64,000 nt of DNA from an uncultured delta proteobacterium (GTDB lineage: Bacteria; Desulfobacterota; Binatia; UBA9968): contig CAVXEP010000009.1 in NCBI GenBank assembly GCA_963760795.1, forward strand, positions 54,848-118,847, in the 5' to 3' direction. Below are positions 1,041-17,981 of the stretch, one piece after another (the first letter of the stretch is position 1; each line of letters starts with the position of its first letter). The notes beneath the pieces are model-generated. The model worked only from the letters and a program-made list of their open reading frames with translations, was not told the origin of the DNA and ran no database searches. The translations under genes were made by a program, and so were the position numbers.

Positions 1041-1098
1041 GATGACTATTTCGCTCCCCTTGCACTTTCGGTCATGGCCGCGCACACCGGAATGACAG

Positions 1099-1983
1099 TC
1101 AATTCACCAAAGACAGTTTCGCTTCGAAGCCTAAAACATTTTTCGCTTTGCTTACACTATACCCACTGCAAGCGCCGTCCAAGCCGGCGCGTAAATCGCT
1201 GACCTGCGGCAGGTACCGGCCAACCAGCTCACGGGTGGGAATATCCACGAGGCTATTCGGCGCGGCTATGTTGAAAATCTGATGGCCGGATAAATCAGCT
1301 TCCAGCGCCACCCGGCAGGCGCGCGCGGCATCGCGGGCATCGATGTAACTCCACAACGCGCCGGTGCCGCGCGCCAGCGGATTCTTCTTGCGCTCAAGCA
1401 GCAATGGCCGGTGCGCTTCGGTATAGATCCCCGAAAAGCGCAGGCTGGTCACCGCGACACCGCTCCTTTGGCTCAACGCGTCGCAGAGTTTTTCACCTAC
1501 TAGTTTAGTGAGCCCGTAAGGATCCTGCGGCCGCAGTGGATGGATTTCGTCAACCGGCAAGTATTCTGGCAGGAGTTCCGTGGACGGATAGTAAAGTCCA
1601 TAGACTGCCAGGCTCGAGCCGCAGATGACTTTCTTTATGCCAAGGATTTCAGCGGCCGCCAGAATATTATTCGTCATCGCCAGGTTTTGATTGAAGCGCT
1701 CGGCGTCACCAACAAGATCGCCAAACCGCCATTTCTGCGCCGCGTCATCGAAGCCGGTTTCCGTGTAGGGAAAACGAATTCGCGCCAGGTGAATCACCGC
1801 ATCGGCATTTTTGAAATGGTCGAGCAACGAGTTGAACCTAGTTAGGTCAGCGACGTAAGTCGGCGCCGGGCACTCCCTCGGCTTGACGCTGTCGAGGGAC
1901 GACACTTGATGGGCGTGGGTAAACAACTCGCGAACGACATACTGCCCCAACCGCCCCGACCCGCCGGTGACGACTACGCGCAT
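1099..1983 (-). CDS. NAD-dependent epimerase/dehydratase (extended SDR)
   Basis: MRVVVTGGSGRLG Rossmann motif and YGLTK YxxxK motif; start moved to ATG 1983. Confidence 0.88.
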   Translation of the reverse strand: MRVVVTGGSGRLGQYVVRELFTHAHQVSSLDSVKPRECPAPTYVADLTRFNSLLDHFKNADAVIHLARIRFPYTETGFDDAAQKWRFGDLVGDAERFNQNLAMTNNILAAAEILGIKKVICGSSLAVYGLYYPSTELLPEYLPVDEIHPLRPQDPYGLTKLVGEKLCDALSQRSGVAVTSLRFSGIYTEAHRPLLLERKKNPLARGTGALWSYIDARDAARACRVALEADLSGHQIFNIAAPNSLVDIPTRELVGRYLPQVSDLRAGLDGACSGYSVSKAKNVLGFEAKLSLVN

Positions 1984-1987
1984 TGAG

Positions 1988-2959
1988 TCACCGCCCCAAC
2001 CCTTTGAACCAGCCGGACTTTTCCAACTCTTGCAGCAAGCTGTTATCGATGAAGTCCGCCGCTTTGGCTTCGCGCGCTTCCTTGCCCGGGGTGCGCCGGA
2101 GGATTTCGTCGATGCTTTCGGACCGCACATAGGGAATTCGGTCGCCGCTGTAGCGCACACCGAAAGTTTGATGCAGCTGGGCCAAGGTCTCGGTATCGGT
2201 CACCTTGGTGTACTTGGACAAGACTTTCATGCTGAACTCTTTGTCCGTGCGCAGCCGCTGCAATCCCTGGGCGAAGCCGCGCATGAAGCGCAGACTGGTG
2301 TCGCGGTTGGCGCGCATGTACGAGCGCGTCGTCGACAGCGGCGTGTTAGGGAAAACTATCTTCAATTGCCCGACATCTTCGAGCTCATGCATGCCGGCTT
2401 TGGCGGCGCGAAAATTACTCGGCGGCGACAATACCACAGCGTCGAGGGCCCCGGCGCTGAGCGCCGCCAAACCTTCCGGCATGCCGCCGGTTTGAATGAC
2501 CGTGACCTGGCCGCGTTCAATACCCCAGTGTTTGAGCGCCGCATCCAACGCCCAGTCGGTCGAGCCGCCGAGGCGAGTCACGCCGATTTTCTTGCCGCGC
2601 AACTGCGCCGGCTGCTTGAACTCCGGCCGCGACATGATCGAAAACACCAAACTATTGCCGGTGTTGCCGATCAGCACCAAGTCGGAACCGCGCAGCGTTG
2701 CGTTGATCACCGGCACCGACGGCCCATAGGCGAACGGCACATCGCCGCTCAGCATGGACTGAATCAGCAGCGAACCGCCGCCGATGTAAAGTAGCTCCGT
2801 GTCCAATCCCTCGCGCTTAAAATACCCGCCTTCCTGCGCTACCCACAAGGTCGACATGGCGCCGCTGATGGCGCTATAGGCGATGCGCAGCGGCGCGGCG
2901 GCCGACGAGTTCGCCGTGGCGATCAGCACGGCAAAAGCGCACAGAACAATCTGCAACAT
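1988..2959 (-). CDS. ABC transporter substrate-binding protein, SsuA/NMT1/THI5 family
   Basis: Signal peptide, LWVAQEGGYFKREGLD and LRGKKIGVTRLG motifs. Confidence 0.9.
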   Translation of the reverse strand: MLQIVLCAFAVLIATANSSAAAPLRIAYSAISGAMSTLWVAQEGGYFKREGLDTELLYIGGGSLLIQSMLSGDVPFAYGPSVPVINATLRGSDLVLIGNTGNSLVFSIMSRPEFKQPAQLRGKKIGVTRLGGSTDWALDAALKHWGIERGQVTVIQTGGMPEGLAALSAGALDAVVLSPPSNFRAAKAGMHELEDVGQLKIVFPNTPLSTTRSYMRANRDTSLRFMRGFAQGLQRLRTDKEFSMKVLSKYTKVTDTETLAQLHQTFGVRYSGDRIPYVRSESIDEILRRTPGKEAREAKAADFIDNSLLQELEKSGWFKGLGR

Positions 2960-2962
2960 GAT

Positions 2963-4183
2963 TTAGCTCATCCGTTTCCTGCGCAGGCCGGTGAAAGAAT
3001 CTATCTTCACCGCTCCATCCTGCTCTTGAGCGTGCGCCAGGGCGCGCGGCGGTTTGCCACTGCGAACCGATTCAATATCGTTAAGAATTAACTTGCGCAA
3101 CATAATCACGCCGCGATCCGACGCCGCCAATTGCTCGCGCCGCTCGCCCAAAACCTTTTGTGACGCCTGACAGGCAATGTCTTCCGTGCGGACGCTGCCG
3201 CGGAACGGCGCGAACTTGCGCCGGTCGTAGACAGGTCGCTGCACCGCTTGAGCTTCAACTTTGCGACTGGGCGCCAGCTTGTCGAAAAACTCGCTATCAG
3301 GACCGGTGTAATGGTTCACCGTGTACAAGGTAAAGCTGCTGTCGTCGTTGGGCGTCACGAACATAAGGTGGGCATTGTGCGAACCGGCGGCGAGCGCTTC
3401 GCGAGATGCTTTGAAATGGGTGAACTCGGTGTCGCCGATCTGCAAGATCGCCGGCAGCGCGAAACTTTTCTCGTCGACATATTCACAATCAGGGGTCGGT
3501 CCGGGCTTGCGTGAGATCACTTTCATGCCGTAAGGCATCTCGACGGCGTCGAACGGTGGAATGTCGCGAAAGTTGAAAAACCAACTGCGCCAGGTGCCGT
3601 CGTTGGGGTCGGCGCGGTGCAAGATGGAAAAATGCGCCGGGTCGGCGCCATTCTCGATGAAGTTGAACCAGTTATAGTTGTACAGACGCGTCGCTTCGAG
3701 GGAGCGCTGCCCCTCCTCGCTGACCAGCGGCAAGTAACGCGGCAATGGCGGCGCATCCGGCGCCGTTCCCATGAAAGCGAACAGCAAACCGCCCTGCTCC
3801 CGAACCGGATAGGACAAATGGCGCACCTTCTGGGTAAAGCCGCGTTCCACCGGCTCCGTCGGCATGGCCAAACAGCGGCCACCGACGTCGAACAGCCACC
3901 CATGGTAGGGACAGCGAATCCCGCCGTCTTCGATGTCGCCATATTCCAGGGACGCACCGCGGTGCGGGCAATGTAAGCCGAGCAAACCGATGCGGCCAGT
4001 ATCGTCGCGAAACAGCACCAGCTCTTCGCCGAGCACTTTGACCGCTTGGGGAATATCGCGCAGCTCGCGATTCGTGCCCACGACCAGCCAATGGCGTCGA
4101 AACCACTCGCCGGCCGGCGTGCCGCCACCCACATACGGGAGATCAGCGAGCGCAAGCTTCTTCGGCCGTTTAATCACGGGCAT
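2963..4183 (-). CDS. Rieske aromatic-ring oxygenase, alpha subunit (phthalate 4,5-dioxygenase-like)
   Basis: CPHRG...CPYHGW Rieske motif, ENGADPAHFSILH mononuclear Fe site, C-terminal SDRGVIMLRK. Confidence 0.9.
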   Translation of the reverse strand: MPVIKRPKKLALADLPYVGGGTPAGEWFRRHWLVVGTNRELRDIPQAVKVLGEELVLFRDDTGRIGLLGLHCPHRGASLEYGDIEDGGIRCPYHGWLFDVGGRCLAMPTEPVERGFTQKVRHLSYPVREQGGLLFAFMGTAPDAPPLPRYLPLVSEEGQRSLEATRLYNYNWFNFIENGADPAHFSILHRADPNDGTWRSWFFNFRDIPPFDAVEMPYGMKVISRKPGPTPDCEYVDEKSFALPAILQIGDTEFTHFKASREALAAGSHNAHLMFVTPNDDSSFTLYTVNHYTGPDSEFFDKLAPSRKVEAQAVQRPVYDRRKFAPFRGSVRTEDIACQASQKVLGERREQLAASDRGVIMLRKLILNDIESVRSGKPPRALAHAQEQDGAVKIDSFTGLRRKRMS

Positions 4184-4254
4184 GATCTGAAAAATGACGG
4201 AATCCGCTCGACTCTAGGCGGACGGATTTGCGATCCGAGGGTGACAATTTGAAA

Positions 4255-4331
4255 TGGTGGTCGCAGTAGGACTTGAACCTACGACCTCGCGCATGTGAGG
4301 CGCGCGCTCTAACCAACTGAGCTATGCGACC
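4255..4331 (-). tRNA. tRNA-Val(CAC)
   Basis: GGTCGCA-TA-GCTC AGTTGGTTA GAGC-G-CGCGC CTCACAT GCGCG-AGGTC-GTAGG TTCAAGT CCTAC-TGCGACC-A-CCA folds into a cloverleaf; CCA is encoded. Confidence 0.96.
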
Positions 4332-4417
4332 ACTAGGAAATCTTATCTAACACCTGGAACCCAAAGCTTCAACTGCGGCCGTCTTGTGACCAATAATATA
4401 TTACTGGAGGACGAAAA

Positions 4418-4560
4418 ATGAAAAAGCAACGTGGCATGGGAACAGTCTATCAGCGGGGTCAATCCTGGGTGGTGGATTATTATATATGGGGCGAGTGCGC
4501 GGGACAGTTGAGGGTGCCGAGACCGAATCCTAGGCACGCCAGAAGCACCGGCTCACACCG
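4418..4560 (+). pseudogene. Degraded N-terminal (arm-binding) fragment of a tyrosine integrase
   Basis: GGAGG SD then MKKQRGMGTVYQRGQSW..DYY, shifting frame to RVRGTVEGAETES*ARQK; resembles phage/ICE integrase N-termini and lies next to the tRNA. Confidence 0.6.
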
Positions 4561-4623
4561 GTTGGGATTATGAACGTCATTAAAATAATTGCGATTAAGT
4601 TTTCAGGTAGTTCCTCTTGTTGC

Positions 4624-4827
4624 TCAATGGCCCGGCGGGTTCTTCGCGTTCTTCTTCAGCCAAGCTTCAACCAATTCTCGCTTAAATCGCCATTGGTTGC
4701 CGACTTTAAACGCTGGCAGACCCTTTTGAGACAGCAGCCGATAGACGGTGAATTTGTTCACATTGAGGTATTCGGCAACTTGCTCAAGCGTAAGCAAGCT
4801 TTGCGAGGAGTGGCCAATTTTTTTCAT
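4624..4827 (-). CDS. Excisionase-family HTH DNA-binding protein (HTH_17)
   Basis: LLTLEQVAEYLNVNKFTVYRLLSQKGLPAFKVGNQWRFKRELVEAWL; probable start ATG 4827. Confidence 0.85.
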   Translation of the reverse strand: MKKIGHSSQSLLTLEQVAEYLNVNKFTVYRLLSQKGLPAFKVGNQWRFKRELVEAWLKKNAKNPPGH

Positions 4828-5059
4828 ACCTTGGCCAATGACAAGGCAAGGAGTGCGCCATGGATGAAAGAGCCAGAAAAGGCTCAATAGTTGCATTGAA
4901 TAACTAGAAAACGAATTCGACTGGCGAGAACTAACCTGATTTGCTTTAGCAGCTATGGAAAGCGGGCAATAAAGCCCTTTAGATTAGATACGTCGAATGA
5001 GAATAAATCTCGTTCCCGGTGTACACGGCAACGCGCTTCTCGACTCGTCAACATGATGC

Positions 5060-5170
5060 GTGGCCAAGTCACTGCCGGACAAAATCAGCTTCATTGAACC
5101 GATGTACGCGCTCAGCGTCCGTAACCTGCCCGAAGGGCCGGACTGGCTTTACGGACCAGCACCGTACTGA
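5060..5170 (+). pseudogene. 5' fragment of an ATP-dependent DNA ligase (LigC/LigD-type)
   Basis: VAKSLPDKISFIEPMYALSVRNLPEGPDWLY then stop, truncated just before the expected ExKxDG motif. Confidence 0.6.
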
Positions 5171-5188
5171 ACATCCCGGACCGGGCCA

Positions 5189-5632
5189 TCACGGCAGCAC
5201 CGCGATAGGCTGGACCTCGATAAAGCTAGTCGGCCGCGCCAAATGACTGACCTCGACGAATGTGATCGCCGGAAAACCTTTCTTGAAAATCTCCTTGGCC
5301 ATCTTGCTGAACTGCGGCGTGTAACGCAGGTCGGTCAGAAACACGCCCATCGAGACAATATCGTCGAGGCTGCCGCCAGCCTTCGCTAGCGTGTTGCCGA
5401 TCTTGTCGAACACGGCTTTGAACTGCGCTGCGAAGTCGCCCAAGTCGGCATCCGGCCGCGGCTGGCTCGCCGTATGGCCGGCAAGAAACACCATCGTCCC
5501 ACCTTTGACTTTCACTGCCGTCGAACGCGAGTCCTGCGGCTGCGGCTCGATGAACTCCTTCTTAAGCTCTTGGCATTCAACGGAAGCGAACGAGCCAAGT
5601 AAGACTAGCGCCAACGAAATTAGAGTTTTCAC
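5189..5632 (-). CDS. Rid (YjgF/YER057c/UK114) family protein with signal peptide
   Basis: Signal peptide MKTLISLALVLLGSFASVEC; VFLAGH, AGGSLDDIV, PAITFVEVSHL, IEV motifs. Confidence 0.88.
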   Translation of the reverse strand: MKTLISLALVLLGSFASVECQELKKEFIEPQPQDSRSTAVKVKGGTMVFLAGHTASQPRPDADLGDFAAQFKAVFDKIGNTLAKAGGSLDDIVSMGVFLTDLRYTPQFSKMAKEIFKKGFPAITFVEVSHLARPTSFIEVQPIAVLP

Positions 5633-5658
5633 GATTCCTCCAAAAAGCAGCCGCTTCG

Positions 5659-6108
5659 TTATTCTTTCACCACCGCGATCGCCTGAATCTCGATCATCGC
5701 GCCGGGAGTCAACAACTTGCGCGCTTCCATGAACGCGCTCGACGGATAACCGGTCTTGAAGACTTCTTTGCGCATGTCGGTGAAGATTTCGCCCCAGCGC
5801 CGCTCGGTGGTGTAAACGGTCATGGTCACGATATCGTCCACCGATCCGCCCACTTTAGCCATGATGCGCCGCATATGCTCCCAGGTCGCGTGCACCTGAC
5901 CGCGGTAGTCGCCCGGCGCGTGTAGGACACCCTTCTCATCCGTCGGACCGACGCCGGAAAGAAACACCAATGCGCCGCCTTTGACCTTGACCGCCTGCGA
6001 GTAGGCCGATTGCGGCACCGGCAGAATCATCTCGCGCTCCTGGGCAAACGCGGGCCGATCGAAACTGAGAAAAAACCAACTTAGCAACAGAACTAATTTC
6101 ATCATCAC
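5659..6108 (-). CDS. Rid family protein with signal peptide
   Basis: Signal peptide ending PAFA-Q; YSQAVKV, VFLSGV, GGSVDDIV, PSSAFME, IEIQAIAV. Confidence 0.88.
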   Translation of the reverse strand: MMMKLVLLLSWFFLSFDRPAFAQEREMILPVPQSAYSQAVKVKGGALVFLSGVGPTDEKGVLHAPGDYRGQVHATWEHMRRIMAKVGGSVDDIVTMTVYTTERRWGEIFTDMRKEVFKTGYPSSAFMEARKLLTPGAMIEIQAIAVVKE

Positions 6109-6114
6109 ATCACC

Positions 6115-6860
6115 TCAGTAGCCGGACTCGCTCTTTGCCGCGCGAGCCGGTGTGCTTTGCGTCACATGACGATAAGCCGCCTCGATATTATTCGGGAATC
6201 GGTCGCGCCCCTCCCAACCTTCGGTTTCCGGCATGCGCAAATCTTTTTGAATTTCGTCCAGGGACTTTTCCGCTTTCACCATGGCGCCGACCCGTTCCAC
6301 CAGCAGCGTGTAATAACGCTCCATATCGTCGAGAATCTTGACGGTGCCCGGCGCGCCATGCCCCGGCACGACGATCTCGGGGTTGAGCGCCTTCATCATC
6401 TTGATGCCATCCAAAGTATCGGCAATCTTTACAAACGGACGCAAGTTGCTGAAGCGCCGCACACCGACAGACGCCGCGGCGAAAACGATGCGCTCCTTGG
6501 GCAGCCAGACCGCCGAGTCGGCTTCGCTGTGTACACTTTTCAAAAATCGCAGTTCAAAGGTTCGTTCGCCTACTTCGAGTTTCATCCAGTCCCGGAACTC
6601 GATATGCGGCAAGACCGGGCGGAAGTTTTTGATTTCAGGCAGCTGCGCATTCTCTGCGATAATTTTTTTCACCCGTTCAGGATTGAGACCTTCGCGCATC
6701 GCCTCTCTGGCGCCGGCGTGGGCGACGATCAGCGCCGGCGGCGAAAACAGCCAGTGACCGGTGGTGTGATCGGTGTGCGGTTCGGTATTGATCAAATAGC
6801 GCACCGGCAAAGGGGGATACTCGGAACACGTTCGCCAGCCAATTTCCGGGGCAATGCATC
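6115..6860 (-). CDS. MBL-fold metallohydrolase, N-terminally truncated paralog of the upstream gene (frameshift near 6810)
   Basis: PVRYLINTEPHTDHTTGH, HSEAD, PGHG; high similarity to the 6859-7771 product but lacks its signal peptide and first strands. Confidence 0.7.
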
Positions 6861-7771
6861 ATTTAGTCTGCAACGCTCTATACGCCGCCTCGACATTCGT
6901 TGGAAAGCGCTCCTTGCTCGCCCAGTGATCGTATTCCGGCATTTTTACTTCCTTCTGAATCTCGTCCAGCGACTTGCCGGCTTTCATCAGCTTGCCGACG
7001 CGCTCCAGCAAGAGCGCGTAATATTTCTCCGTGTCGTCGAATATCTTCACCGTGCCGGGGTTGCCGTGGCCGGGAATCACATGCTCGGGATTCAACGCTT
7101 TCATCATTTTGGCCGCCGCCAAGATGTCCGGAATCGTCACGAAAGGACGGAAAATGTTGATCTGATCGACGACGATCCCCGAGGCCGAGAAAAGCACGCG
7201 TTCCTTCGGCAACCACACCGCCGTGTCCGCTTCGCTGTGGACATTTTTTTGGTAGAGCAGCTCTAAAGTCCGCTCGCCGACGTTGAGCGTCATCTTTTGC
7301 CGGTACTCGACATGAGGGACCACGAAACGAAACCCGTCGAAAGCCGCGCGCATCTCCGGCGACTCGGCCATGAGCTTTTCATTTCGCTTCGGGTTGAACG
7401 CCGCCTTCATCGAATCCGTCGCGCCTTCATGCGCCACGATCAAGGCCGGCGGCGAGAAAACAAAGTGACCCGTTGTGTGATCGCCGTGGGGCTCGGTATC
7501 GATCAGATAGCGCACCGGGAGAGGCGTAAGCTTCTTCACGGCGGCGAGAATCGCCCGCGAATCCGTCGGGTTGTGGCCACTATCGATCAGCACCACGCCT
7601 TCCTGGGTAACGACGATGCCGCAATTGGAATTAAAATTGGTCCCGACGTAGACGTAAATCCCGTCGGCAATCTTGCGAATGTTAGCGACCGAGATCCTGT
7701 GCCTGTGCCAGACTGGTTAATAGAAGCACAGCGAGCATCGTGAACAGCGACGCGAAGCGAACAGTCTTCAT
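6859..7771 (-). CDS. Exported MBL-fold metallohydrolase (cyclase-like), frameshift near 7690
   Basis: Signal peptide MKTVRFASLFTMLAVLLLTSLAQAQ joins ANIRKIADGIYVYVGTNFNSNCGIV..LIDSG..TEPHGDH after a one-base shift. Confidence 0.85.
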
Positions 7772-7785
7772 GGCATCCTCCTTGG

Positions 7786-8281
7786 TCACTTCCCTTGTTT
7801 CGATCCTCTGACTACGGCAACCGCTTCGACTTCCACCATTGCGCCTGGCGGGCGCAAGTTTTTCGCCTCGACGAAGGCGCTCGCCGGGCCCCAATCGCTG
7901 AACGCCTCGCGAGCGCTTTTTTCCAACACGTCGCGCAACGAGCTATCGGCGCCGTAGACCGTCAACGTCACGAAATGGGCCGGCGACAACGCCTACTCGC
8001 GAGGCCATGAGCCGCAGGTTCACCAGCGCTTGTCTTACTTGCCCGGTCAAATCCCCCGCGCCAACCAGGTCACCTTTCCTGTCCACGGGTCCGACCCTGG
8101 GAAACACGAACACGGTCTCCAGCGCGTTCCTGAACACTTGAACGTCGCCCGTCGGCGGCGCCGGTTCTTGCGCGAATGTCGACGCGGCATCGAGCATTAA
8201 CAGCAAGCCGGCGGAGAGCCAAGCAGAAATTCTAACGCTTCGAATCATCGCTAAGAAAAATCGCACCGCCCCATGACTCAA
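7786..8281 (-). CDS. Rid family protein with signal peptide (frameshift near 7990)
   Basis: ORF 7943-8281 (signal peptide, GDLTGQVRQALVNL) joins ORF 7786-7989 (PASAFVEAKNL..MVEVEAVAVV). Confidence 0.78.
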
Positions 8282-9323
8282 CGCCCTGGATAGAGCCGGG
8301 CAAAAAAACCTTCCTGTTCGAGTTCGCGCACCACGCTCGAGTCGGTCAGCGTTTCGGCTGATTTTCCTTTAAGGCCCGGCTTGGCTGCGAACTCTGCGAT
8401 ACCCAGCGCGACGTTATCGATTTTCGGATAAGGCTTTTCCGGGATCGCGTGCTGGACATAAGTCCGGTACATGAATTCTAGCAACCCCGAGTCGCTCACT
8501 TTCAAATAACGGGTGTAAATGCCATTCGCCGCCCCACGGTCGCGCCGCGCCAAGGCGATCGCTTCGCTGAGCGCCTGGGTAAATCGCTTCACAGCGTCCC
8601 GCGAGCCGGCGAATAATTTGCGCGTCACTGCGAAGTCGACACCGGCGCCGATGTAGAGTTTCAGACTGTCGTTGTCGGCGAGCACGCGAACCTTTTCGAT
8701 CTCGCCGCGCCGTTCCAAATCGAAGATATTATCTTCATTGCTGGTGGTCGCGTCGATCTCGCCTTTGAGCAGCGCATTAACCCGCAGCACGCTGCGGCTG
8801 CCGAAGGGCACCAGGGTAACGTCTTTGTCAGCATCCAAGCCGAGACGGCGCAAGGTTTCGCGCGTGATGCGGTCTTGCGAGCTGCCTGCTTCGCCGGTGC
8901 CGACCGCTTGCCGCGCAGTTGCTCCGGCCGAGTGATCGATGGCTGCGATAACAGCTTGAGCACGCTGTAACCGGTGTTGGCGAAGAAAACCAAATCCGCG
9001 CCGTCACCGATGGCCGACACCATCCAGTTGGCGGTGGCGACATAAATATCCGCGGCATTAGTGCGCGCGCCGTCAGCGATCGCCTCGCCCGAGTTGGGCG
9101 TTTTGATTTCAACGTTCAAACCATATTTCGTGAAAAGCCCCGCGTCCTGGGCCAGCCACAGCGGCAACTTCGCCGGCCGGTCCGGATAGGAAAGCACGGT
9201 ATGCCGCTGCTCGGCGCCTTCGAGCGCCGATGCCGCTAGGCTCATCAGCAGCGACGCACACAACAAGACCGCAAATCCAATCCGAAAAGAATTGAGCCAA
9301 TACTTAGCAGAGCGCCGCATCAC
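8278..9323 (-). CDS. SsuA/NMT1-type substrate-binding protein (frameshift near 8905)
   Basis: ORFs 8661-9323 and 8278-8853 are the two halves of one SBP. Confidence 0.85.
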
Positions 9324-9329
9324 TGTCCT

Positions 9330-10766
9330 TCATGACTCCGGCCGGTCTTCGATGGGCCGCGGCATCGGATTCTTATAGTCCGCGTGAAACGACGTGTCGA
9401 CCTTCTTGCCTTCGCTGAATACCATTTCGACATTTTGCGTGTCCGAAATATTCTTCAACGGATCGCCGCCGACAATGACCAGATCCGCCACCTTGCCGCG
9501 TTCGACGCTGCCAAAGTCTTTTTCCTTGCCCCACGCCTCGGCGACATTGAGCGCCGCGGTGCGAATCGCTTGCACCGGCGTCAATCCGGCTTCGACTAAC
9601 ATCTCCAGCTCGGCGTGCAGCGCGTACCCGGGCACGACGTGATTGGGATCGGAGCCTGAATGAATCTTACCGCCGGCGGCGGCAAACCTGCGCACGAACT
9701 CCTGCAGCATCTTGAAGCCGCCCACCACTTCCTGACGCTTTGCCGGCGCCATCTTCTCGTACTTGGCGAAGAAACTTTCGGTGTCTTTGAGAATGTACGG
9801 CGGCAAATATTTCAGCTGCGGATTTTTGAGCAAGGTCAACTCGCGTTTCTTCATGCTCTCCGCGTAACTCGACAACGGCCGAAACCAAGTCGCCCAGGTG
9901 GTGCTCCAGTGGACGTTTTTGTCGATCATCACCTTGATGATCTTGTCGAACATCGCCGGTTCCATGTGAGCGTGCACTTCGGCGGTGTCGATTTTGCCGA
10001 GCATGCGGCCGATATCGAGATCGTTTTTCTTTTTCGGATCTTGAATCGACGTGTAGACCACCGACCAGGAATGCTCCACCGACTGATAACCGTTGGCCGC
10101 CGCGGTGAAAATATCGAGGGAGTGGCCAAAGACCGGCCGGCCGAGTTTGTGCGCCTCGTCCGCCGCAGCCTTGGCGACATGGGGTTTGAGCCGCTCGAAT
10201 AGTTTGATGCCATCGACGCCCTGAGCGACCAAGTCGCGCACCGCTTTGCGCGCCTCTTCCTCGCTGTCGACGATGATGCTGGTGCGCTGGCGCCGGAGCG
10301 TGCCGGTGCCTCCCGGCGGCGGCCCGTCGATGATGTTGGCCGACGCCCACACCCGCGGCCCGCGCACGCTGCCGTTCTTCACGCCCTCGCGCTGCGCGGT
10401 GATCCATTCCACTGGATTGTTGGAAATATTCGGGCAGGTGACCACACCATAGGCGAGATAAAGTTCGCCCATCCAATCGCGGTAGTGACAATGGCCGTCG
10501 ATCAAGCCCGGCAAGCAGCGTCTTACCCTTGGCGTCGATCAGTTCGGCTCCTGCGGAATCGCCACGTCGCCGCGCTTGCCGACCGCGGCAAACTTGCCAT
10601 CGCGAATGACGATGACCGAATCGGCAATCGCCGCGCGCCCCGTGCCGTCGATCAGCGTGCCGCCTTGGATGACGATCGGCCGGCTCGAGCCGACCATGGA
10701 ACAGGCAGAGAAAAGCAGAGTTACCACCAGCAATAAGCAGCGAAACAAAGAGCCAGTCATAGCCAT
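9330..10766 (-). CDS. Amidohydrolase, probable lipoprotein (frameshift near 10520)
   Basis: Lipobox LFSA-C; GGTLIDGTG; PGLIDGHCH; GSD; GSVERGKVADLVIV. Confidence 0.85.
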
Positions 10767-10865
10767 AAGTGTCGGTTCCTCCAGGTTTGATGTGAAGCGG
10801 TATTCACCGCGGATGCTCAGAGTTCGCATGGTTTCTGCGGTGCGATCTCCGATCCTAGTTTTCTG

Positions 10866-12539
10866 CTACTTGAATGAAACCACCAGGTAGACGGCGTTGG
10901 ACTCCGAAGCGGCAACGCCCGGATCGATCACGGTAATTTTATGCGTGCCGGCCGTCAGCGCCGGCACTTGCACTTCCAACTCCCTGCCGTTCAAGAATTT
11001 GCTGGCGGCTTTTTTGCCGTTCACCAGCACCTGATGCGACGGCCGAAAGTTGGCGCCGGCTAACTTCACCTGGCCGGCCGCGCCCTCAGTCAAAGCCGCG
11101 GGGGAAACTTGCGATAAACTTGTGATAAAACGGTCCGACATCGGCCGCGGAATCGGGTTGCGGTAATTCGCATGGTACGAAGTGTCCACCGCTTTGCCGT
11201 CGGTGAACACTTTTTCAATATTCTGGGTCGCCGAAATGTCTCGGGTCACGTCGCCGCGCACGATCACCAGGTCGGCGACTTTGCCTTTCTCTACGCTGCC
11301 AAAGTCTTTATCTTTGCCCCAGGCTTGGGCGACGCTAAGGCTGGCCGATTGGATCGCTACCAGCGGACTCAAGCCGGCGTCGATGGCGAGTTCTAACTCG
11401 GCATGAACGCCATACGCCGGCAAGAGCGTGCCCGGATCCGATCCGGAATGGATCTTGCCGCCGGCGGCGACGTAGCGGCGGGCAAAGTCCTGGACCATTT
11501 TGTAAGCCGTTTCCAACGGCGCGCGCCGTTCCGGCGTCATCTTTTCGAAGCCGGCGAAGTAGCTCTCGACCGCCTCCAGATTGTACGCCGGCAAATAGGC
11601 TAGGTTGGGAATCTTCAAGGTCGCCAATTCGCGCTTCTTCATCTCCGCCGCGCGCGGCGACAGCGCGCGAAACTGCGTCGCCCACGCCGGGCTCCAGTGA
11701 ATATCCTTGGCGATCATCGCTTTGATAATCTCGTCGAACTGCTCCGGCACCATGTTGACATGGGCTTCCACGGTGCCGACCTTGCCGACCATGCGGTTCA
11801 TGTCGACCTCGGCGCGCTTCTTCGGGTCCTTGATGGTCGTGAACATCACTGCCCAGGTATGCTCGATGGAAGTGTAGCCGGCGTCGATGGTCTCCCACAT
11901 ATTGACCGAGTGGCCGATCACCGGCTTGCCCAGCTTGCGCGCCTCGTCGGCGATCGCCTTGGCGACTTCCGGTGACACCCGTTCGAGCACTTTGAAACCG
12001 TCCATGCCCTTCGCGACATGATCGCGCACCGCCTGGCGCGCCTCTTCGTCAGTGCGCACGATGATACTGCCGCGCTGCCAGCGCTGCTCCGGCATGCCCT
12101 GCGGCCGCGGCCCATCGAGCGCATGGCCGGAGATCCACAAACGCGGTCCGCGAATCTTGCCTTTCTGAATGCCCTCCTTCTGGGAAATGATCCATTCCGT
12201 CGGACTGTTATTGATATCGGGGCAAGTGGTCACGCCGTAGGCGAGATAAAGCTCGCCGAGCCACTCCCAATAATGGCAGTGGCCGTCGATCAGCCCCGGC
12301 AAAATCGTCTTGCCCTTGGCGTCGATCACCTGCGCGCCGCGCGGAATCGTCACCTCGCTGCGCTTGCCGACCTCTTGAATGCGCCCGCCGGAGAAGACAA
12401 CGACGGCGTCCTCCACCGGCGGCCTCCCGGTGCCGTCGATCAACATCCCGCCGACAACGGCGACGGGCCGCGTCTGCGCAGCCAGGTCGGTCCGAACGTC
12501 AATCAAAAGCACAGCCACAAGCATCAACCATTGCCACAT
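10866..12539 (-). CDS. Exported amidohydrolase with C-terminal IPT/TIG-like beta domain
   Basis: Signal peptide; PGLIDGHCH; GSD; C-terminal ITSLSQVSPAAL..GANF..ELEVQVP..ESNAV. Confidence 0.88.
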   Translation of the reverse strand: MWQWLMLVAVLLIDVRTDLAAQTRPVAVVGGMLIDGTGRPPVEDAVVVFSGGRIQEVGKRSEVTIPRGAQVIDAKGKTILPGLIDGHCHYWEWLGELYLAYGVTTCPDINNSPTEWIISQKEGIQKGKIRGPRLWISGHALDGPRPQGMPEQRWQRGSIIVRTDEEARQAVRDHVAKGMDGFKVLERVSPEVAKAIADEARKLGKPVIGHSVNMWETIDAGYTSIEHTWAVMFTTIKDPKKRAEVDMNRMVGKVGTVEAHVNMVPEQFDEIIKAMIAKDIHWSPAWATQFRALSPRAAEMKKRELATLKIPNLAYLPAYNLEAVESYFAGFEKMTPERRAPLETAYKMVQDFARRYVAAGGKIHSGSDPGTLLPAYGVHAELELAIDAGLSPLVAIQSASLSVAQAWGKDKDFGSVEKGKVADLVIVRGDVTRDISATQNIEKVFTDGKAVDTSYHANYRNPIPRPMSDRFITSLSQVSPAALTEGAAGQVKLAGANFRPSHQVLVNGKKAASKFLNGRELEVQVPALTAGTHKITVIDPGVAASESNAVYLVVSFK

Positions 12540-12584
12540 AGGACAACTCCTAAAACGGTTTGAACCTCTTCAGCAATCCGACAA

Positions 12585-13571
12585 TCATTTGTACAACTGA
12601 TCGATAAAGCCGCTCTGGTCGAGCTGGCGCAAGAACGTCAGATTGAAAAGCTCCTCGATTTTCAATTTTTTCACCGCCGGTTCGCGCGCGCCCATAATAT
12701 CGAGGGTCGCTTTGACAGCGTTCATATCGGGATAGGGCTTTCGGCCCATCTGATGCTGCGGGTGGTTCTTGTACGCGAGCTCGATCATATCGCGGTCTTT
12801 GGTGCGTAACAGATCGGCGAAATATTGGCTGCTGCGCTCTTTTTCGCTCAGGAAGAAGCGCACGCCTTCGAGATAGCCGCGCATATATCGCTGCATCACG
12901 TCCGACTTCTTCGCGACGATCGCGGGCGTGGTGACGATGGTGCTGCCGAAAAACGGCAGTGTCGGCATATCGAGCACGCGAAACCCGCTGCGTTTGGCAA
13001 AGGCGGATTCCGCGGAGGCAAAAACCGTCGCGTCGATGACGCCCTTTTCCATTGCGACGAAGCGGGCCTGGCCGACCTGGACGATGGCGATGTCTTTGTC
13101 CGCGTCCAATCCGAGCTTTTGAAACAGGTAGCGCACCATCAGTTCGGAGATACCGCCGAAGCGGATGATGCCGACCTTTTTGCCTTTAAGCTGCTTGATG
13201 TCTTTGATCTCGGGCCGCGTCACCACGTCGTATTCGAGGGTATTCGATTGGGAAAGCAGGAAAGTCAGCTTGACGCCATGAGCCATCGCCTGCAACGCCG
13301 CCACCGGCGCGCGCATGTCCAGGTCGACGTCGTTATTGAGCAGCGCACTGATCGACGCCGGCCCGCCGGTGATAAGAATCAACTCGACGTCGAGTCCCTG
13401 TTTCTCGAACAGCCCGGCGCGCTGGGCGATATAGGTAATCCCAGCGGTGTTGCCGGTGACGGAGGCATAGGAAATGCGCAGCTTCTCAGCGGCGGCGACA
13501 CTCGACGGCAACAGCAGCGCCAATGAGAGCGTGAGGAAGTTTTTTAGGCTGCGCTTGACCGACATCGGCAT
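12585..13571 (-). CDS. SsuA/NMT1-type substrate-binding protein
   Basis: Signal peptide; GLFEKQGLDVEL; LKGKKVGIIRFG. Confidence 0.9.
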   Translation of the reverse strand: MPMSVKRSLKNFLTLSLALLLPSSVAAAEKLRISYASVTGNTAGITYIAQRAGLFEKQGLDVELILITGGPASISALLNNDVDLDMRAPVAALQAMAHGVKLTFLLSQSNTLEYDVVTRPEIKDIKQLKGKKVGIIRFGGISELMVRYLFQKLGLDADKDIAIVQVGQARFVAMEKGVIDATVFASAESAFAKRSGFRVLDMPTLPFFGSTIVTTPAIVAKKSDVMQRYMRGYLEGVRFFLSEKERSSQYFADLLRTKDRDMIELAYKNHPQHQMGRKPYPDMNAVKATLDIMGAREPAVKKLKIEELFNLTFLRQLDQSGFIDQLYK

Positions 13572-13624
13572 TTCATTGCTCCGTTAAACTCTCACACGGT
13601 AACCAATCCCAACCAGAGAATAGG

Positions 13625-14014
13625 TCAGACACCAAGCTGAATTCTGCTGCCGAAGATACGCCGGATCGGAAAGGATTCAAGGTCTATGTCTTCCAAACAC
13701 CTTACGTTAACGGCCCAACCGTCAAAGGGCGCTACTCCTTCTTTCAATTCTTGTGGCGTCGGATCGCTCGGTCGTCGGAAAGGCAGGATGCCGCATGTTG
13801 GGCAAAAGTAGTCCACCGCCGTTCGAGATCCCCATTGATAGCGGACCAGGTCTTCCCATGGAGTCAGCAGTCGAAGACTTTCTCTTGCAACGCGATAAAT
13901 CAGCGCACCTCTGCGAACACAGACCGAGCAGTCGCAGACTCGAACATGATCGATCTCCGCGTCGACTTCGAACTTGACCTTGCCGCAATGACAGCTCCCG
14001 CGGTAGGTTTTCAT
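13625..14014 (-). CDS. GFA (CENP-V/glutathione-dependent formaldehyde-activating) family protein
   Basis: GSCHCG, CDCSVC and FCPTCG Zn motifs. Confidence 0.9.
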   Translation of the reverse strand: MKTYRGSCHCGKVKFEVDAEIDHVRVCDCSVCVRRGALIYRVARESLRLLTPWEDLVRYQWGSRTAVDYFCPTCGILPFRRPSDPTPQELKEGVAPFDGWAVNVRCLEDIDLESFPIRRIFGSRIQLGV

Positions 14015-14557
14015 AGCGCTTAATTAATACACACACAGGCTTTTGTCGATGTTAATTTCTGCTGAGGTCACGCCGCGAGAATAAGTCGATTGGTACGAGT
14101 AGTTGAGAAGTCCGTTTGTAGCACAGGAATCAATTCGGCCCATTGTCTCCATTCTAGAGGGCCAGCGCTTAGAGGGGGTCTGAGATTGGGTTCTGCGTTC
14201 GATGCCGCTGGCAGCTGACCTGGAGGAAGACGAGAGCGCCAAGGTGAAGAGTTAATCTCAAACAATCAATGCCAGATACTGATTGTTGACCGATGTTTGG
14301 ACCAGAAATCCATTGCTGAGTTTTATCGCAAGGCCGCACAGGTTCACTTCGACTCCACTACGCCACCTCCAAACCATTTCGGTTCTATTTCTCCTACTGT
14401 GGTAACCACTTGTTTGCTAAACCGATTTTCGGTAGGTGCGTTCATTGGGACGCCGTCGCAGAGGCAAACCGATTGTCGCACTAGCCGTTTCGCGCCGGGT
14501 TGGCAAGCCTCGTAACGTGCCTTCTCCAGCGACCCTAGGTTATGGTATTATCCGGCT

Positions 14558-14782
14558 ATGGATTATCAGAGAATCATAACCATTGAGCCTGATAAACGAA
14601 GCGGCAAGCCCTGCATTCGCGGCACGAGAATGACGGTTACCGACGTATTGGAATACCTTGCAGGAGGCATGACGCAGGAGGAATTACTGGGGGAATTCCC
14701 CGATCTTACCGTTGAAGATATCCGTGCCTGCTTCGCGTTCGCTGCCGACCGCGAGCGCAAGCTCGCAACTCTTCCGGGATGA
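14558..14782 (+). CDS. DUF433 antitoxin
   Basis: RSGKPCIRGTRMTVTDVLEYLAGGMT..PDLTVEDIRAC. Confidence 0.92.
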   Translation: MDYQRIITIEPDKRSGKPCIRGTRMTVTDVLEYLAGGMTQEELLGEFPDLTVEDIRACFAFAADRERKLATLPG

Positions 14783-15111
14783 AGCTCCTTTTCGACCAGA
14801 ATCTCTCGCCTCGTTTTCCTCGAACTCTAGCTGACATTTATCCTGACAGCCTTCACGTTCGGGAAATCGGCATGCGCGAAGCAACCGACACGGCAATCTG
14901 GGAATATGCGAAATCAAATGAATTCACGATTGTGTCGAAAGACTCTGACTTTCAGGCGCGCAGCTTACTGTACGGTAGCCCGCCAAAGTTCATCTGGCTG
15001 CGTGTAGGGAACTGTCCGGTCAAGCTCATCGAAGATTTGCTACGAAACCATTCCATAGCAATCCATACCTTTGCTCAAAACGAACGGGAGGCTCATTTGA
15101 TGTTACCGTGA
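14779..15111 (+). CDS. DUF5615 PIN-like toxin (VapC45-type)
   Basis: MKLLFDQNLS, SKDSDF, PPKFIWLRVGN; ATGA overlap with DUF433. Confidence 0.9.
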   Translation: MKLLFDQNLSPRFPRTLADIYPDSLHVREIGMREATDTAIWEYAKSNEFTIVSKDSDFQARSLLYGSPPKFIWLRVGNCPVKLIEDLLRNHSIAIHTFAQNEREAHLMLP

Positions 15112-15327
15112 AGAGTCCATTTTGAAAGGCATCGGTGCTTTGAGAGACCTTCAAGCGAACTGACGAGAATGATTCACTTCCGCATTTCGAACCCTGTTAG
15201 CTGTCCATCGTCATGGATGGGGTCAACGCTTAAGTAAATAATAAAGCTGTGACTCGCATTTCTGCTCCTGCTCGGTTGATATGAGTCAAGTATGGAATAC
15301 AGCACGTCACTCCCGGGTATCGACTTG

Positions 15328-15978
15328 CTACCGTATCGGTCCTGCTGCAGCGGATGGTTGGAGGTGATTCAACTTCAGCTCGGCATGAGCTTCGCGCGCC
15401 ACAAGTAACGCCGAGCGTAAGAAAATGGCGCAGATAAACGCGCCGACCACGATGTCCGGCCAAGGGGAAAGCGTGATCCGCACGGCCAATGCCGCTAACA
15501 ATACCGCGGAGTTCGCGATGAGATCATTTCGAGAGCAGAGCCACACCGACCGCATGTTGATGTCCTCCGCACGGTGGCGCCAGAGCAAGGCAAAGCAGAC
15601 GCCGTTCGCGGCCAGCGCAAGAGCGCCTATCGCACCCATTGTCTCTACCACCGGGAGCTGAGGGAAAAGCAGCTTGTACGCGAGCTGCCCAAAGACGAAA
15701 AGACCAAACAGCCCCATCACCGCTGCCTTGGCAAGAGAGGCGCGCGCTTTCCATACGGGACCGCGCGCGACGACGTAAAGACTAAAGCCATAAACAAGCG
15801 CGTCGCCGAGCATGTCGAGGGAGTCCGCTAGCAGGGCCACGGACCCAGCGAGCAAGCCCGCCACAAGTTCGACGACAAACATCGCAGCGTTCACGAGCAA
15901 AACGAGGCGAAGTGTCGCCGTTTGCCGCCCGCGCAGCCCGTCGATAGCGCAACTCTTATCGCTACAGCAATCGTCCAT
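15328..15978 (-). CDS. Cation diffusion facilitator (CzcD-like, TM domain only)
   Basis: SVALLADSLDMLGD; NMRSVWLCSRND; N-terminal CC..C. Confidence 0.88.
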   Translation of the reverse strand: MDDCCSDKSCAIDGLRGRQTATLRLVLLVNAAMFVVELVAGLLAGSVALLADSLDMLGDALVYGFSLYVVARGPVWKARASLAKAAVMGLFGLFVFGQLAYKLLFPQLPVVETMGAIGALALAANGVCFALLWRHRAEDINMRSVWLCSRNDLIANSAVLLAALAVRITLSPWPDIVVGAFICAIFLRSALLVAREAHAELKLNHLQPSAAAGPIR

Positions 15979-16348
15979 AATCCAAACATCTAACTACCAA
16001 TAATATAGACCGACGTTCGCCGATATCAATCGCCACTGGCCAGACAAAGGCCGTTGTTACAGGAAGAAGTAAAATCCTTCTGTTGGTGTTGAGGGTCAAT
16101 CATCGCGCGGTACTGACCCGTAGCGCTATGATTCATGCCGGCAAGCGGTTGAAGGTACTCTGATTGAAGAAGACTGCGGCAACCGGGGGGAAACGCAAAT
16201 ATCAAACAATAAATGCATGACTTTGATACCTTGACCTGAAGTCTGCGCATTGGCCGGCCGGGGGATTGATGGGCGTTACTTCGACGGCGGCTTCAACTAG
16301 TCGCAGAATTGCTATGAGGTCAAAGTCTGACTCGAACGCCTACCTGAC

Positions 16349-17323
16349 TTAATGCCTACCTGTATCAATATTTGAATCTATCCGCTGAGCAATTCTTTGG
16401 GCCAGAAACGATACCCTCCCATTTTGCGTTGTAATTGTTCGGGTGCTTGCCTCGATCCGATAGTACCGATTCTTAGTGATGAACGGTTGAACCCAAGGAT
16501 CGTCGTCACGATAAAAGACAACATCCTCAGCACATCGGACAATCAAACGATTGATTTTCATGATCTCTTGGTGGTTTACCTTACGGCAACTGCTGCTGAA
16601 ATTTTTGAAAGAGAAATCCGTCCGCTGCCTGTCGAACGTGCGGTCGGGCACGATTCGTACAGCAAGGTTAGGTGCAAGAGGGATTATTCTATTCAACGTG
16701 CGCGGGTCAGTGGTATCCTCGATGGCCACGGGGAAGTCGCTCGTGAAAAACGGGCTGCTGTTAAATTCATTTTGCAAAACTTCCCACTTAAAATTTCCAA
16801 AACTTGCTGTCATACCCAGTATGTTACCGATCCCGATCGCCTGCGGAAATTTCGGATCAATCACTACCTGAACGTTCCCACTTTGCAGAAGATCAGTAAG
16901 ACTTTTACCACCTAAGGCGGGTGGCGGTGGCGGGATTTCGCCCTTCGCATCAAGTTCGAACGCTAAATTCTCCAGCCGTTTCTTAAGCGGCTCGGAATTA
17001 ATGCGCATGCCTCCTGGTGAACAGGTGTTTACGAAGGCAATAAAACCCGCAATCGTGTAAATGCATTCTGTGTTAATCTTCCTTGTCTTGAGCATTTCCA
17101 ACGCGGCATCGTATTTTGGTTCTATAACTTTCAGAAATTCCTCAATCGCCCGATCATTTTGCAAGTAGGCATTCGTGCTGCCGTCATTGATTCCGCAGAC
17201 AACCTTTGAACTTGGCGTAAAAGACTTTAAGTCACTCTTCCGCATGGCATACATGCGATCACCGAGAACGGGTGAATAGAACTTTCTAAGATGCACTTGG
17301 GAGACGTAATGATCCAGCGGCAT
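16349..17323 (-). CDS. DUF4238 domain protein
   Basis: N-terminal HYVSQVHLRKF and FFTSDFPV motifs; low GC. Confidence 0.75.
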   Translation of the reverse strand: MPLDHYVSQVHLRKFYSPVLGDRMYAMRKSDLKSFTPSSKVVCGINDGSTNAYLQNDRAIEEFLKVIEPKYDAALEMLKTRKINTECIYTIAGFIAFVNTCSPGGMRINSEPLKKRLENLAFELDAKGEIPPPPPALGGKSLTDLLQSGNVQVVIDPKFPQAIGIGNILGMTASFGNFKWEVLQNEFNSSPFFTSDFPVAIEDTTDPRTLNRIIPLAPNLAVRIVPDRTFDRQRTDFSFKNFSSSCRKVNHQEIMKINRLIVRCAEDVVFYRDDDPWVQPFITKNRYYRIEASTRTITTQNGRVSFLAQRIAQRIDSNIDTGRH

Positions 17324-17538
17324 TACTGATTATTTAAGTCAAGAAATCCTGAACATCCATTGATGAATCCAGAAGGCGAATGTGATTTCCGTCAACCACG
17401 ACTTACCCAGGCCGGTGTCTACATCAAATTTATTGGGTTTTCACGGCCCTCGATGACACGCATTTACTTGCTAATCAGAGCACCAGAATAATGTATGTAT
17501 GGTCTCATGAAAGCCAATTTATCTTCGAATGCGTATGC

Positions 17539-17567
17539 AAAAAACAGTCGCTATTCTGGCAGCGACT
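17539..17567 (-). terminator. Intrinsic terminator overlapping the stop of the CMD-fold gene
   Basis: AGTCGCT-GCCAGAAT-AGCGACT-G-TTTTTT on the minus strand. Confidence 0.7.
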
Positions 17568-17826
17568 TACTCCGCGCCTTCACCCGCTGATTGAGCGACT
17601 GCAAAACTCCCGCGTCCACCGCCGAGATCACATCCACCGCTGCGTCTAGTTCTTCTTCGGTCATCCCCGCTTTCCTTGCGTCCGCAAGGCGCCGATCCAC
17701 TCACGGATCGCACAGCCGCATCATCGCCACGGCGAGCCCCATGAGCATCTTCTCGCGCTCGCTCAGACACTCGACGGCATGGGCGTCGCGATAGAAAGTT
17801 CGAAAATCTGCTTTGTTGGTTGCCAT
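17551..17826 (-). CDS. AhpD/carboxymuconolactone decarboxylase-fold probable selenoprotein (CxxU), 91 aa
   Basis: AAGGA SD; MATNKADFRTFYRDAHAVECLSEREKMLMGLAVAMMRLCDP(TGA)VDRRLADARKAGMTEEELDAAVDVISAV...E*; the TGA (codon 42, 17701-17703) occupies the second Cys of CxxC. Confidence 0.85.
17674..17689 (-). promoter_or_regulatory. Bacterial SECIS-like hairpin
   Basis: CCTTGC-GGAC-GCAAGG begins exactly 11 nt after the in-frame TGA and has a G-initiated apical loop. Confidence 0.72.
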
Positions 17827-17981
17827 CGATTAGTTCCTTCCGGGATAAATACTCCGGTGAGTCCTAACTCACCAACATCCTTGCGTGTTAGAAATTAATA
17901 CACTCCCCGTGACCTTGACGGGGCGGCGTTTACAGCCAGTCCTCGCGTTCCACGCCGAAGCTCGTCGTGGAGCACCCTCGT

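Follow-up and report, generated by a model that had tools for sequence, protein, structure and literature searches.

What does a bacterium gain from a row of tightly packed genes whose products nearly all appear to leave the cytoplasm, and among which no transporter is encoded? This question is raised by a stretch of 64,000 nt (hereafter the window) from contig CAVXEP010000009.1 of an uncultured delta proteobacterium of the class Binatia. The contig measures 119 kb and belongs to a genome of 6.6 Mb (referred to as G000). Positions 5189-13571 of the window hold, on the minus strand, a cluster of nine same-direction genes which encode, in order, a solute-binding protein (SBP1), two amidohydrolases (AH1 and AH2), a second solute-binding protein (SBP2), a Rid-fold protein (Rid3), two hydrolases of the metallo-beta-lactamase (MBL) fold (MBL1 and MBL2) and two further Rid-fold proteins (Rid2 and Rid1). 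The cluster represents an accessory gene island that is conserved among Binatia-like soil bacteria. As for its role, we lean, with about as much doubt as conviction, towards a periplasmic pre-digestion and capture module for an amide- or ester-linked compound, taken up via transporters encoded elsewhere.

Organization and conservation of the gene cluster

The initial annotation described nine co-oriented, tightly spaced genes with no permease or ATPase among them, and scans of open reading frames (ORFs) and Pfam domains confirmed this. The intergenic gaps, from SBP1 towards Rid1, amount to approximately 45, 99, 6, 29, 14, 48, 6 and 26 nt, and the genes are presumably co-transcribed. Pfam matches were obtained for 10 of the 12 ORF pieces scanned from the cluster, the exceptions being a 96-aa N-terminal piece of AH2 and a 112-aa N-terminal piece of Rid3. 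Inside 5189-13571, no permease, ATPase or recognisable cytoplasmic enzyme was found.

The same arrangement recurs in other genomes. An MBL-anchored scan (one genome per species, at least 561 relatives, counts taken from the 80 best loci) recovered the order AH-SBP2-MBL(-MBL) in 10 of these 80 loci, all carried by metagenome-assembled genomes (MAGs) labelled Binatia, 'Deltaproteobacteria', 'delta proteobacterium', 'Proteobacteria' or 'Syntrophobacteraceae'; the Rid pair was also visible in two MBL-anchored cluster loci, within the sequence examined. A second scan, anchored on Rid1 and covering 80 soil metagenome loci, showed that, among the 61 loci with room for it, 57 have Rid2 immediately upstream of Rid1. 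Where at least 1 kb of sequence lay upstream of Rid2 (34 Rid-pair loci), an MBL gene was located within 3.6 kb in 20, SBP2 directly upstream in three, and neither of them in 11. Synteny across genomes therefore reveals a unit that is conserved in Binatia-like MAGs and soil contigs. Of 24 other genomes of the genus, 6 carry an MBL1 ortholog at 74% identity or more, and the cluster is a patchy accessory trait. Two relatives proved informative throughout: G006, a genome from the same genus assembled from short reads, and L105, a soil contig of 5 kb that is the closest relative.

In several genera, the cluster is flanked on one side by an EVE-domain gene plus a methyltransferase gene and on the other by a glyoxalase gene plus a gene for a thiamine pyrophosphate (TPP) enzyme. 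The island of other genera may also hold an M20 amidohydrolase of the N-acyl-amino-acid type (192 bits with TIGR01891, above the cut-off of 153.75), a third MBL (385 aa), PhoD, c-type cytochromes and more SBPs, and the N-termini of these extra members are likewise Sec-, lipoprotein- or Tat-signal-like, Tat being the twin-arginine translocation route. Among them, the TPP enzymes (approximately 632-656 aa) carry the canonical twin-arginine motifs SRRGFLK and TRRSFIK; an exported TPP enzyme would be unusual. Their genes (L141:2364-4268, L144:1838-3784, L135:1975-3945, L031:14362-16260, L021:12662-14560 and L037:9025-10923) adjoin the Rid pair or flank the island, with a small CxxCH cytochrome encoded between two such genes in L141 and L135. 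Four of the 11 Rid-pair loci without MBL or SBP2, those annotated or translated (L135, L139, L141 and L144), have a TPP enzyme directly upstream of Rid2-Rid1. G000 itself contains no close ortholog of the Tat-signal TPP enzyme, its best match being 30% identical.

Predicted export of the cluster products

Signals were scored with a crude heuristic script combined with inspection by eye. Judged by eye, the N-terminus of every product other than the MBL2 remnant has a short n-region, in most cases basic, ahead of a hydrophobic core and a small-x-small site, and AH2 displays a lipobox-like LFSAC. The earlier proposal that eight of the nine genes carry Sec- or lipoprotein-like signals, with the truncated MBL as the exception, agrees with these N-termini. 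Among homologs, the script detected the signal pattern in 11 of 14 Rid proteins, 6 of 8 amidohydrolases, 7 of 8 SBP2 proteins and 33 of 36 MBLs. Homolog alignments display the same form, with 20-25 N-terminal residues that are variable yet hydrophobic, followed by conserved mature N-termini such as QELKKEF (Rid1 homologs), AQDLGP (MBLs from four phyla) and AQTRPV (amidohydrolases); the AxA/Q signal junctions are conserved. The predicted signals are kept in homologs as elements variable in sequence and constant in form. The genome encodes Omp85 and LspA (signal peptidase II), so the host has a periplasm and processes lipoproteins. As far as sequence can tell, export of the cluster products is well supported, though not proven.

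Amidohydrolases and MBL-fold hydrolases

AH1 (10866..12539, minus strand) is an amidohydrolase that starts with a signal-like segment and ends in a TIG/Ig-like domain (Pfam Amidohydro_1 and TIG), and AH2 (9330..10766, minus strand) is its paralog with a lipobox-like signal and the Amidohydro_1 domain, interrupted by two compensating 1-nt assembly indels. Both pass the PF01979 gathering threshold of 25, AH1 with 60.6 bits and the C-terminal piece of AH2 with 60.3 bits. An alignment of eight sequences revealed H92, H94, K188, H215 and D373 as invariant, and the histidine of the sixth strand is present in seven of the eight; we take these residues to be the metal ligands on the basis of the HxH, Lys, His, His, Asp pattern. 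The deviating sequence, AH1 of G006 (L013:14693-16444), has an arginine instead (SIERSW), which may be a sequence error or the mark of an inactive copy.

Judged by sequence, AH1 and AH2 are closest to the COG1228 group. The model for the Caulobacter-type Xaa-Pro dipeptidase (NF051886) returned 133.6 and 132.1 bits and did not reach its cut-off of 500, and the best match for the TIG/Ig-like tail of AH1 was the choice-of-anchor Z (CoaZ) surface repeat; both NCBIfam scores of AH1 were taken on the G006 ortholog. The closest PDB relatives comprise molinate hydrolase (4ub9), phenylurea hydrolase B (PuhB, 4whb), the L-Arg carboxypeptidase Cc2672 (3mtw), the prolidase-like Sgx9260 (3feq/3n2c) and 2qs8. 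The cluster enzymes share with COG1228-type enzymes the amidohydrolase fold and the HxH-Lys-His-His-Asp ligand pattern, but unlike the solved members they contain a long internal insert, with PDB matches confined to the terminal segments, and AH1 additionally possesses the Ig-like domain.

MBL1 (6859..7771, minus strand) is an MBL-fold hydrolase (Pfam Lactamase_B) with a predicted export signal, the motif ExHxDH and one assembly indel, and the MBL2 remnant (6115..6810, minus strand) is a paralog that retains Lactamase_B. The MBLs pass the PF00753 gathering threshold of 22.7 with 24.8-48 bits. In an alignment of 36 sequences, E92, H94, D96, H97, H179 and H236 are invariant, a Glu standing in place of the first His of the motif. 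The metal ligands of both enzyme types are therefore retained. The best family model is TIGR04559 (SoxH-related quinoprotein-relay zinc hydrolase 2), whose cut-off of 280 bits was not reached (126.9 and 125.4 bits); the beta-lactamase subclass models, with cut-offs of 200-240 bits, were not reached either (59.7-62.5 bits for B1 and 30 bits for B3).

A structural model of the G006 MBL1 ortholog had a predicted local distance difference test (pLDDT) value of 91.5. A Foldseek search with the MBL1 model placed an uncharacterised Burkholderia MBL (8d2z) and the chlorothalonil dehalogenase Chd (6uxu) at the top, with template modelling (TM) scores of 0.76-0.80 (0.79-0.80 for Chd); the model also superposes on alkylsulfatase catalytic domains, and true B1 beta-lactamases rank lower. 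Sequence and modelled fold together indicate that the MBLs are SoxH/chlorothalonil-dehalogenase-like. With SoxH-related hydrolases (TIGR04558/04559), Chd and 8d2z, MBL1 shares the MBL fold and a C-terminal helical extension, and its export is predicted as well. It differs from these relatives in having ExHxDH rather than HxHxDH, is 20-21% identical to the solved structures and is not linked here to Sox or PQQ genes. In the open-access literature, nothing was found on PDB entry 8D2Z or on SoxH-type MBLs in the periplasm.

Rid proteins lacking the RidA arginine

Rid proteins are treated as cytoplasmic damage-control enzymes. Three of them with predicted export signals are encoded in the cluster, all on the minus strand: Rid1 (5189..5632), Rid2 (5659..6108) and Rid3 (7786..8248, with one assembly indel). 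Rid1 and Rid2 match Pfam Ribonuc_L-PSP (PF01042, gathering threshold 27.3) with 67.2 and 64.4 bits, respectively. Rid3 was identified through a tblastn match to Rid2 and an intact ORF of 170 aa in L105, whose product scored 28.7 bits with TIGR00004, below the cut-off; it is present in the closest relatives only and is absent from G006. A model of Rid1 (pLDDT 74.6) matched RidA structures in Foldseek with a TM score of approximately 0.7, as expected for a Rid fold. Rid1 has 278 homologs of similar length, and a Protein Atlas look-up returned generic Rid clusters only.

At the position of the RidA arginine, located by the PAR motif of RidA-type PDB chains, Rid1 carries Ile, replaced by Val or Met in homologs, and Rid2 and Rid3 carry Ser, with Thr in the Rid3 of L105. 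In Niehaus et al. 2015 (PMC4433059), this conserved arginine (Arg105 of E. coli TdcF) is described as essential for imine hydrolysis in RidA and Rid1-3, and its loss as setting apart the predicted non-deaminase subfamilies Rid4-Rid7. Since the arginine that marks RidA-type imine deaminases is missing from Rid1, Rid2 and Rid3 of the cluster, a RidA-like role is not to be assumed for them.

Comparison with the arginine-less subfamilies described there (PMC4433059) reveals both likeness and difference. The cluster proteins resemble Rid4-Rid7 in that they have the Rid fold and the conserved Glu and lack the arginine, but they carry Ile/Val/Met or Ser/Thr at this position rather than the Trp of Rid4 and Rid7, and they differ from Rid4-Rid7 as described in their cleavable-looking signal peptides and their occurrence as a tandem pair. 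The words 'signal peptide', 'periplasm', 'secreted' and 'exported' do not occur in PMC4433059. Papers on a nicotine pathway and on chitin oxidation feature Rid proteins and do not describe them as exported, and no description of an exported arginine-less Rid pair was found in the open-access literature.

Solute-binding proteins without a transporter

NMT1/SsuA-like SBPs are normally linked to ATP-binding cassette (ABC) transporters. SBP1 (12585..13571, minus strand) is such a protein with a Sec-type signal, MPMSVKRSLKNFLTLSLALLLPSSVAAA/EK, and passes Pfam NMT1 (PF09084) with 73.7 bits against a threshold of 20.5; its best named SBP family, TIGR01728 (SsuA_fam), gave 82 bits and the cut-off of 163.5 was not reached. 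SBP2 (8278..9323, minus strand) is a second NMT1-type protein with a signal peptide and one assembly indel, and in related loci its gene always follows an amidohydrolase gene, at a distance of 6 nt in the window. SBP1 orthologs that are 69-89% identical accompany the cluster. The cluster SBPs are 55-89% identical between loci, compared with approximately 25-35% to other paralogs, which identifies SBP1 and SBP2 as dedicated members of the cluster. Searches of PDB sequences with SBP1 and an SBP2 profile yielded distant matches only (3qsl, THI5 and SsuA, with E values of 1e-10 to 1e-3), from which no ligand can be deduced.

The lack of an adjacent permease has to be seen against the genome as a whole. 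A tblastn search with SBP1 detected 336 paralog loci in G000, 302 of them covering more than 200 residues; examples in the window lie at 1988-2959, 20696-21676, 51353-53380 and 61458-63486. Only 7 of the 302 have a BPD_transp_1 match within 3 kb, and 19 within 5 kb, and none of the 98 BPD_transp_1 matches of the genome falls on the 119-kb contig. With 283 of 302 NMT1 SBPs devoid of a permease within 5 kb, orphan status is the norm in G000, and a missing permease is therefore uninformative here. Approximately two dozen frames of G000, 570-630 aa in length, contain two BPD_transp_1 domains and so represent fused double permeases (for example C13:97623-99026, C31:47835-49259 and C29:152384-153808); they are candidate partners that the orphan SBPs might share.

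A comparable expansion is known from Rhodoplanes sp. Z2-YC6860, for which PMC5994714 reports an over-representation of 434 orphan TTT-family SBP genes. Both cases involve a single SBP family at hundreds of copies, mostly without an adjacent membrane component; unlike that of Rhodoplanes, the expansion in G000 concerns the NMT1/SsuA-like family in a different phylum, and was counted by tblastn only. No paper on an NMT1 SBP expansion in Binatia or Binatota was found in the open-access literature.

Frame breaks and the MBL2 remnant

As assembled, four genes are interrupted by five frame breaks, at approximately 10548 and 10514 in AH2, 8903 in SBP2, 7986 in Rid3 and 7686 in MBL1, the last falling between the signal peptide and the mature part. 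The cluster was compared with Logan contigs from three soil DNA runs of two studies and from one RNA-library run (X15). Independent contigs carry frame-restoring 1-nt indels at 10548/10551, 10514/10516, 8903/8904, 7986/7989 and 7686/7688, and apart from these there is only an insertion of 27 nt in the spacer between SBP1 and AH1, at position 12553 (soil run X1). The corresponding frames are open in the orthologs of G006, whose AH2 has 478 aa, and of L105. Because independent contigs have 1-nt indels at these very positions and the relatives' frames are intact, the breaks in AH2, SBP2, Rid3 and MBL1 are, on this sequence comparison, assembly errors. The five indels are packed into approximately 2.9 kb (7686-10551), compared with 9 of 336 SBP paralog loci of the genome that are visibly split across frames.

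MBL2 is a different case. Alignment indicates that approximately 83 N-terminal residues, including the signal peptide, are missing. The gene has its full length in G006, G018 and G017, though in G017 its frame is broken, and it is wholly absent from L105, where Rid2 directly follows MBL1. Since the closest relative has no MBL2 at all, the truncation is probably a real step of gene loss in a decaying gene. At the junction itself the contigs are ambiguous: X15 shows a loose end at 6817, and run X2 joins 6407>7116 and 6778>7574 at low depth.

Proposed mechanism and alternative explanations

We propose that an organic compound with amide and/or ester-type bonds would reach the periplasm and be cut there, or on the cell surface, by the two COG1228-type amidohydrolases and one or two MBL hydrolases. 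SBP1 and SBP2 would bind the substrate or its products and pass them to ABC permeases encoded elsewhere, a hand-over that must hold for most of the approximately 300 orphan NMT1 SBPs of this genome. The Rid proteins may act on a small carboxylate-type intermediate, by binding or processing it, and would not perform RidA-type imine deamination. The initial annotation envisaged a periplasmic pathway for an N-containing or heterocyclic compound, with the SBPs perhaps delivering substrate to the enzymes and with hints of an assembled complex; the conserved unit with its export signals is borne out, delivery by the SBPs and the complex find no support, and a substrate of that kind is possible.

Several observations weigh against this proposal. 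No cluster enzyme passes the cut-off of any named equivalog family. In Alphaproteobacteria, Betaproteobacteria and Acidobacteria, the MBL (50-70% identical) is solitary among unrelated neighbours (14 loci), so that the parts of the cluster may not form one pathway; the 115 ORFs at these 14 non-cluster loci include no recurrent neighbour that hints at a substrate. The content of the island varies between genera, the distribution of Rid1 orthologs is patchy, with 5 detected among 301 genomes sampled from the class, counting G000, and the 11 of 34 Rid-pair loci that lack MBL and SBP and follow a Tat-signal TPP enzyme imply that the Rid pair does not belong exclusively with the hydrolases. The signal peptides were judged with a crude script and by visual inspection, and AH1 of the window failed the script because its n-region has no Lys or Arg. 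Co-transcription gains little: a scan of 4100-14300 found 7 promoter-like sites (3.8 +/- 1.8 in shuffled sequence) and 22 terminator-like sites (12.4 +/- 3.7), none of which convincingly marks the ends of a minus-strand operon, and contigs of the RNA library X15, which may be DNA, lie on 19 of 30 bins, mainly from Rid1 to SBP2, a partial coverage with no transcript or transcript ends shown.

The most serious competitor is a detoxification or resistance island, in which the exported hydrolases would destroy toxic xenobiotics or antibiotics (lactams, thiocarbamate- or phenylurea-type amides, halogenated aromatics) before entry, the SBPs and Rid proteins would sequester them, and uptake would not be the point. 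The solitary exported MBL gene of many phyla is what resistance-type hydrolases would look like, and molinate hydrolase and phenylurea hydrolase B are among the closest solved relatives of the amidohydrolases, although their matches cover N- and C-terminal parts only. Chlorothalonil dehalogenase, and more distantly B1 beta-lactamases, are structural neighbours of the MBL, yet the beta-lactamase scores of approximately 60 bits stay far from 200 and the first zinc-ligand His is Glu. Without a role in uptake or sensing, the presence of two conserved SBPs dedicated to the cluster would be difficult to account for. We regard detoxification as unlikely. Scavenging of organosulfur compounds, with SsuA-like SBPs, sulfatase-like MBLs and amidohydrolases that would release and capture sulfonates or sulfate from conjugates in the periplasm, could draw on SsuA_fam as the best named SBP family, on the SoxH-related MBL model and its alignment with the alkylsulfatases SdsA1, Pisa1 and YjcS over their catalytic domains, on a small cytochrome weakly like SorB in related loci, and on Tat-signal TPP enzymes that score with sulfoacetaldehyde acetyltransferase (Xsc) among many TPP families. 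All of these family scores are below their cut-offs, however, and those of the TPP enzymes do not favour Xsc over other families; the additional domains found in alkylsulfatases are missing from the MBL (TM score normalised to target approximately 0.35), and some 300 SBP paralogs mean that the family must bind many ligand classes. This reading of the cluster is quite improbable.

The initial annotation also suggested that the SBPs perhaps deliver to the enzymes rather than to a transporter; they would then be accessory subunits of a complex anchored by the lipidated AH2 and the Ig-like domain of AH1. Such an arrangement would fit a 119-kb contig without a permease match and the constant position of SBP2 at a very short distance behind an amidohydrolase gene, and SBP folds that work without a transporter exist, namely THI5, which represents the nearest solved SBP relative family, and MxaJ with methanol dehydrogenase. 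In a genome where permease-less NMT1 SBPs are the rule, however, the idea finds no support, and neither does the complex: five orthologs of other genera lack the lipobox seen in AH2, and the TIG domain, which matches a surface repeat, is missing from most amidohydrolase orthologs. A complex prediction for AH2 (23-478) with SBP2 (24-343), run on 8-row alignments, scored 0.00 against a mark of 0.32 and carries no weight either way. Direct delivery is also quite unlikely. More improbable by far is a decayed operon or assembly artefact, dead in this organism. Five frame breaks and one truncated gene in 8.4 kb might suggest it, the more so as SBP paralogs are rarely split (9 loci), but every break is a 1-nt indel relative to independent soil contigs, the orthologs of G006 and L105 are intact, and MBL2 alone looks truly degraded.

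Beyond the pre-digestion and capture module, a bolder version can be entertained, tentatively and with more doubt than belief. It would comprise a multi-step catabolism that is wholly extracytoplasmic, in which the arginine-less Rid pair partners metallohydrolases and, in sister lineages, Tat-signal TPP enzymes coupled to a c-type cytochrome, with the hundreds of orphan NMT1 SBPs acting as interchangeable receptors for a few shared permeases.

Flanking genes

Downstream of Rid1, a gene for a small HTH_17 DNA-binding protein (4624..4896, minus strand; Pfam HTH_17, 64 bits) is also found in L105, L123 and L161 and is absent from G006; its membership in the unit is uncertain. Further downstream on the minus strand, window positions 3-4183 encode a Rieske oxygenase with a LigXa-like C-terminus, an NMT1 SBP (SBP3), an NAD-dependent epimerase/dehydratase and a UbiD-family decarboxylase. 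In G006, the Rieske, SBP and epimerase genes directly follow Rid1, and a cupin-like gene occupies the place of the window's UbiD gene. The Rieske, SBP3 and epimerase genes were rejected as members since they lie within 1.5 kb of the Rid pair in G006, L105 and the window only; a Rieske match was located 5-6 kb downstream in L139 and L144, and none was found in L018 and L075.

On the other side, 53 nt upstream of SBP1, a signal-less GFA-family protein is encoded at 13625..14014 (minus strand; Pfam GFA, 43 bits). It was rejected as a tenth cluster member because it is not conserved with the cluster, distant homologs (30-36% identical) being present in 2 of 164 related loci searched. The stretch 13625-19000, between SBP1 and a conserved methyltransferase gene (19004-19663), is absent in G006, has a lower G+C content and contains the GFA gene, a DUF5615/PIN-like gene, a short cation-efflux ORF, a DUF4238 gene and an MBL fragment; it looks like inserted accessory DNA.

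Significance

Taken singly, the exported COG1228 amidohydrolases, the SoxH-like MBLs and the orphan SBPs belong to known kinds. Their conserved combination, above all with the arginine-less Rid pair and its predicted export, appears undescribed. Two lessons concern the reading of such genomes: an SBP without a permease is uninformative where SBPs have massively expanded, and the frame breaks of this assembly are not to be taken for pseudogenes. The cluster supplies concrete proteins for expression and screening. Binatia are uncultured and abundant in soil, and only genomes inform the picture of their physiology; a conserved island composed almost wholly of exported enzymes suggests that the periplasm is where they acquire some of their carbon or nitrogen. 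For the Rid family, a tandem pair that is exported and lacks the catalytic arginine would imply a different, unassigned activity of the Rid fold.

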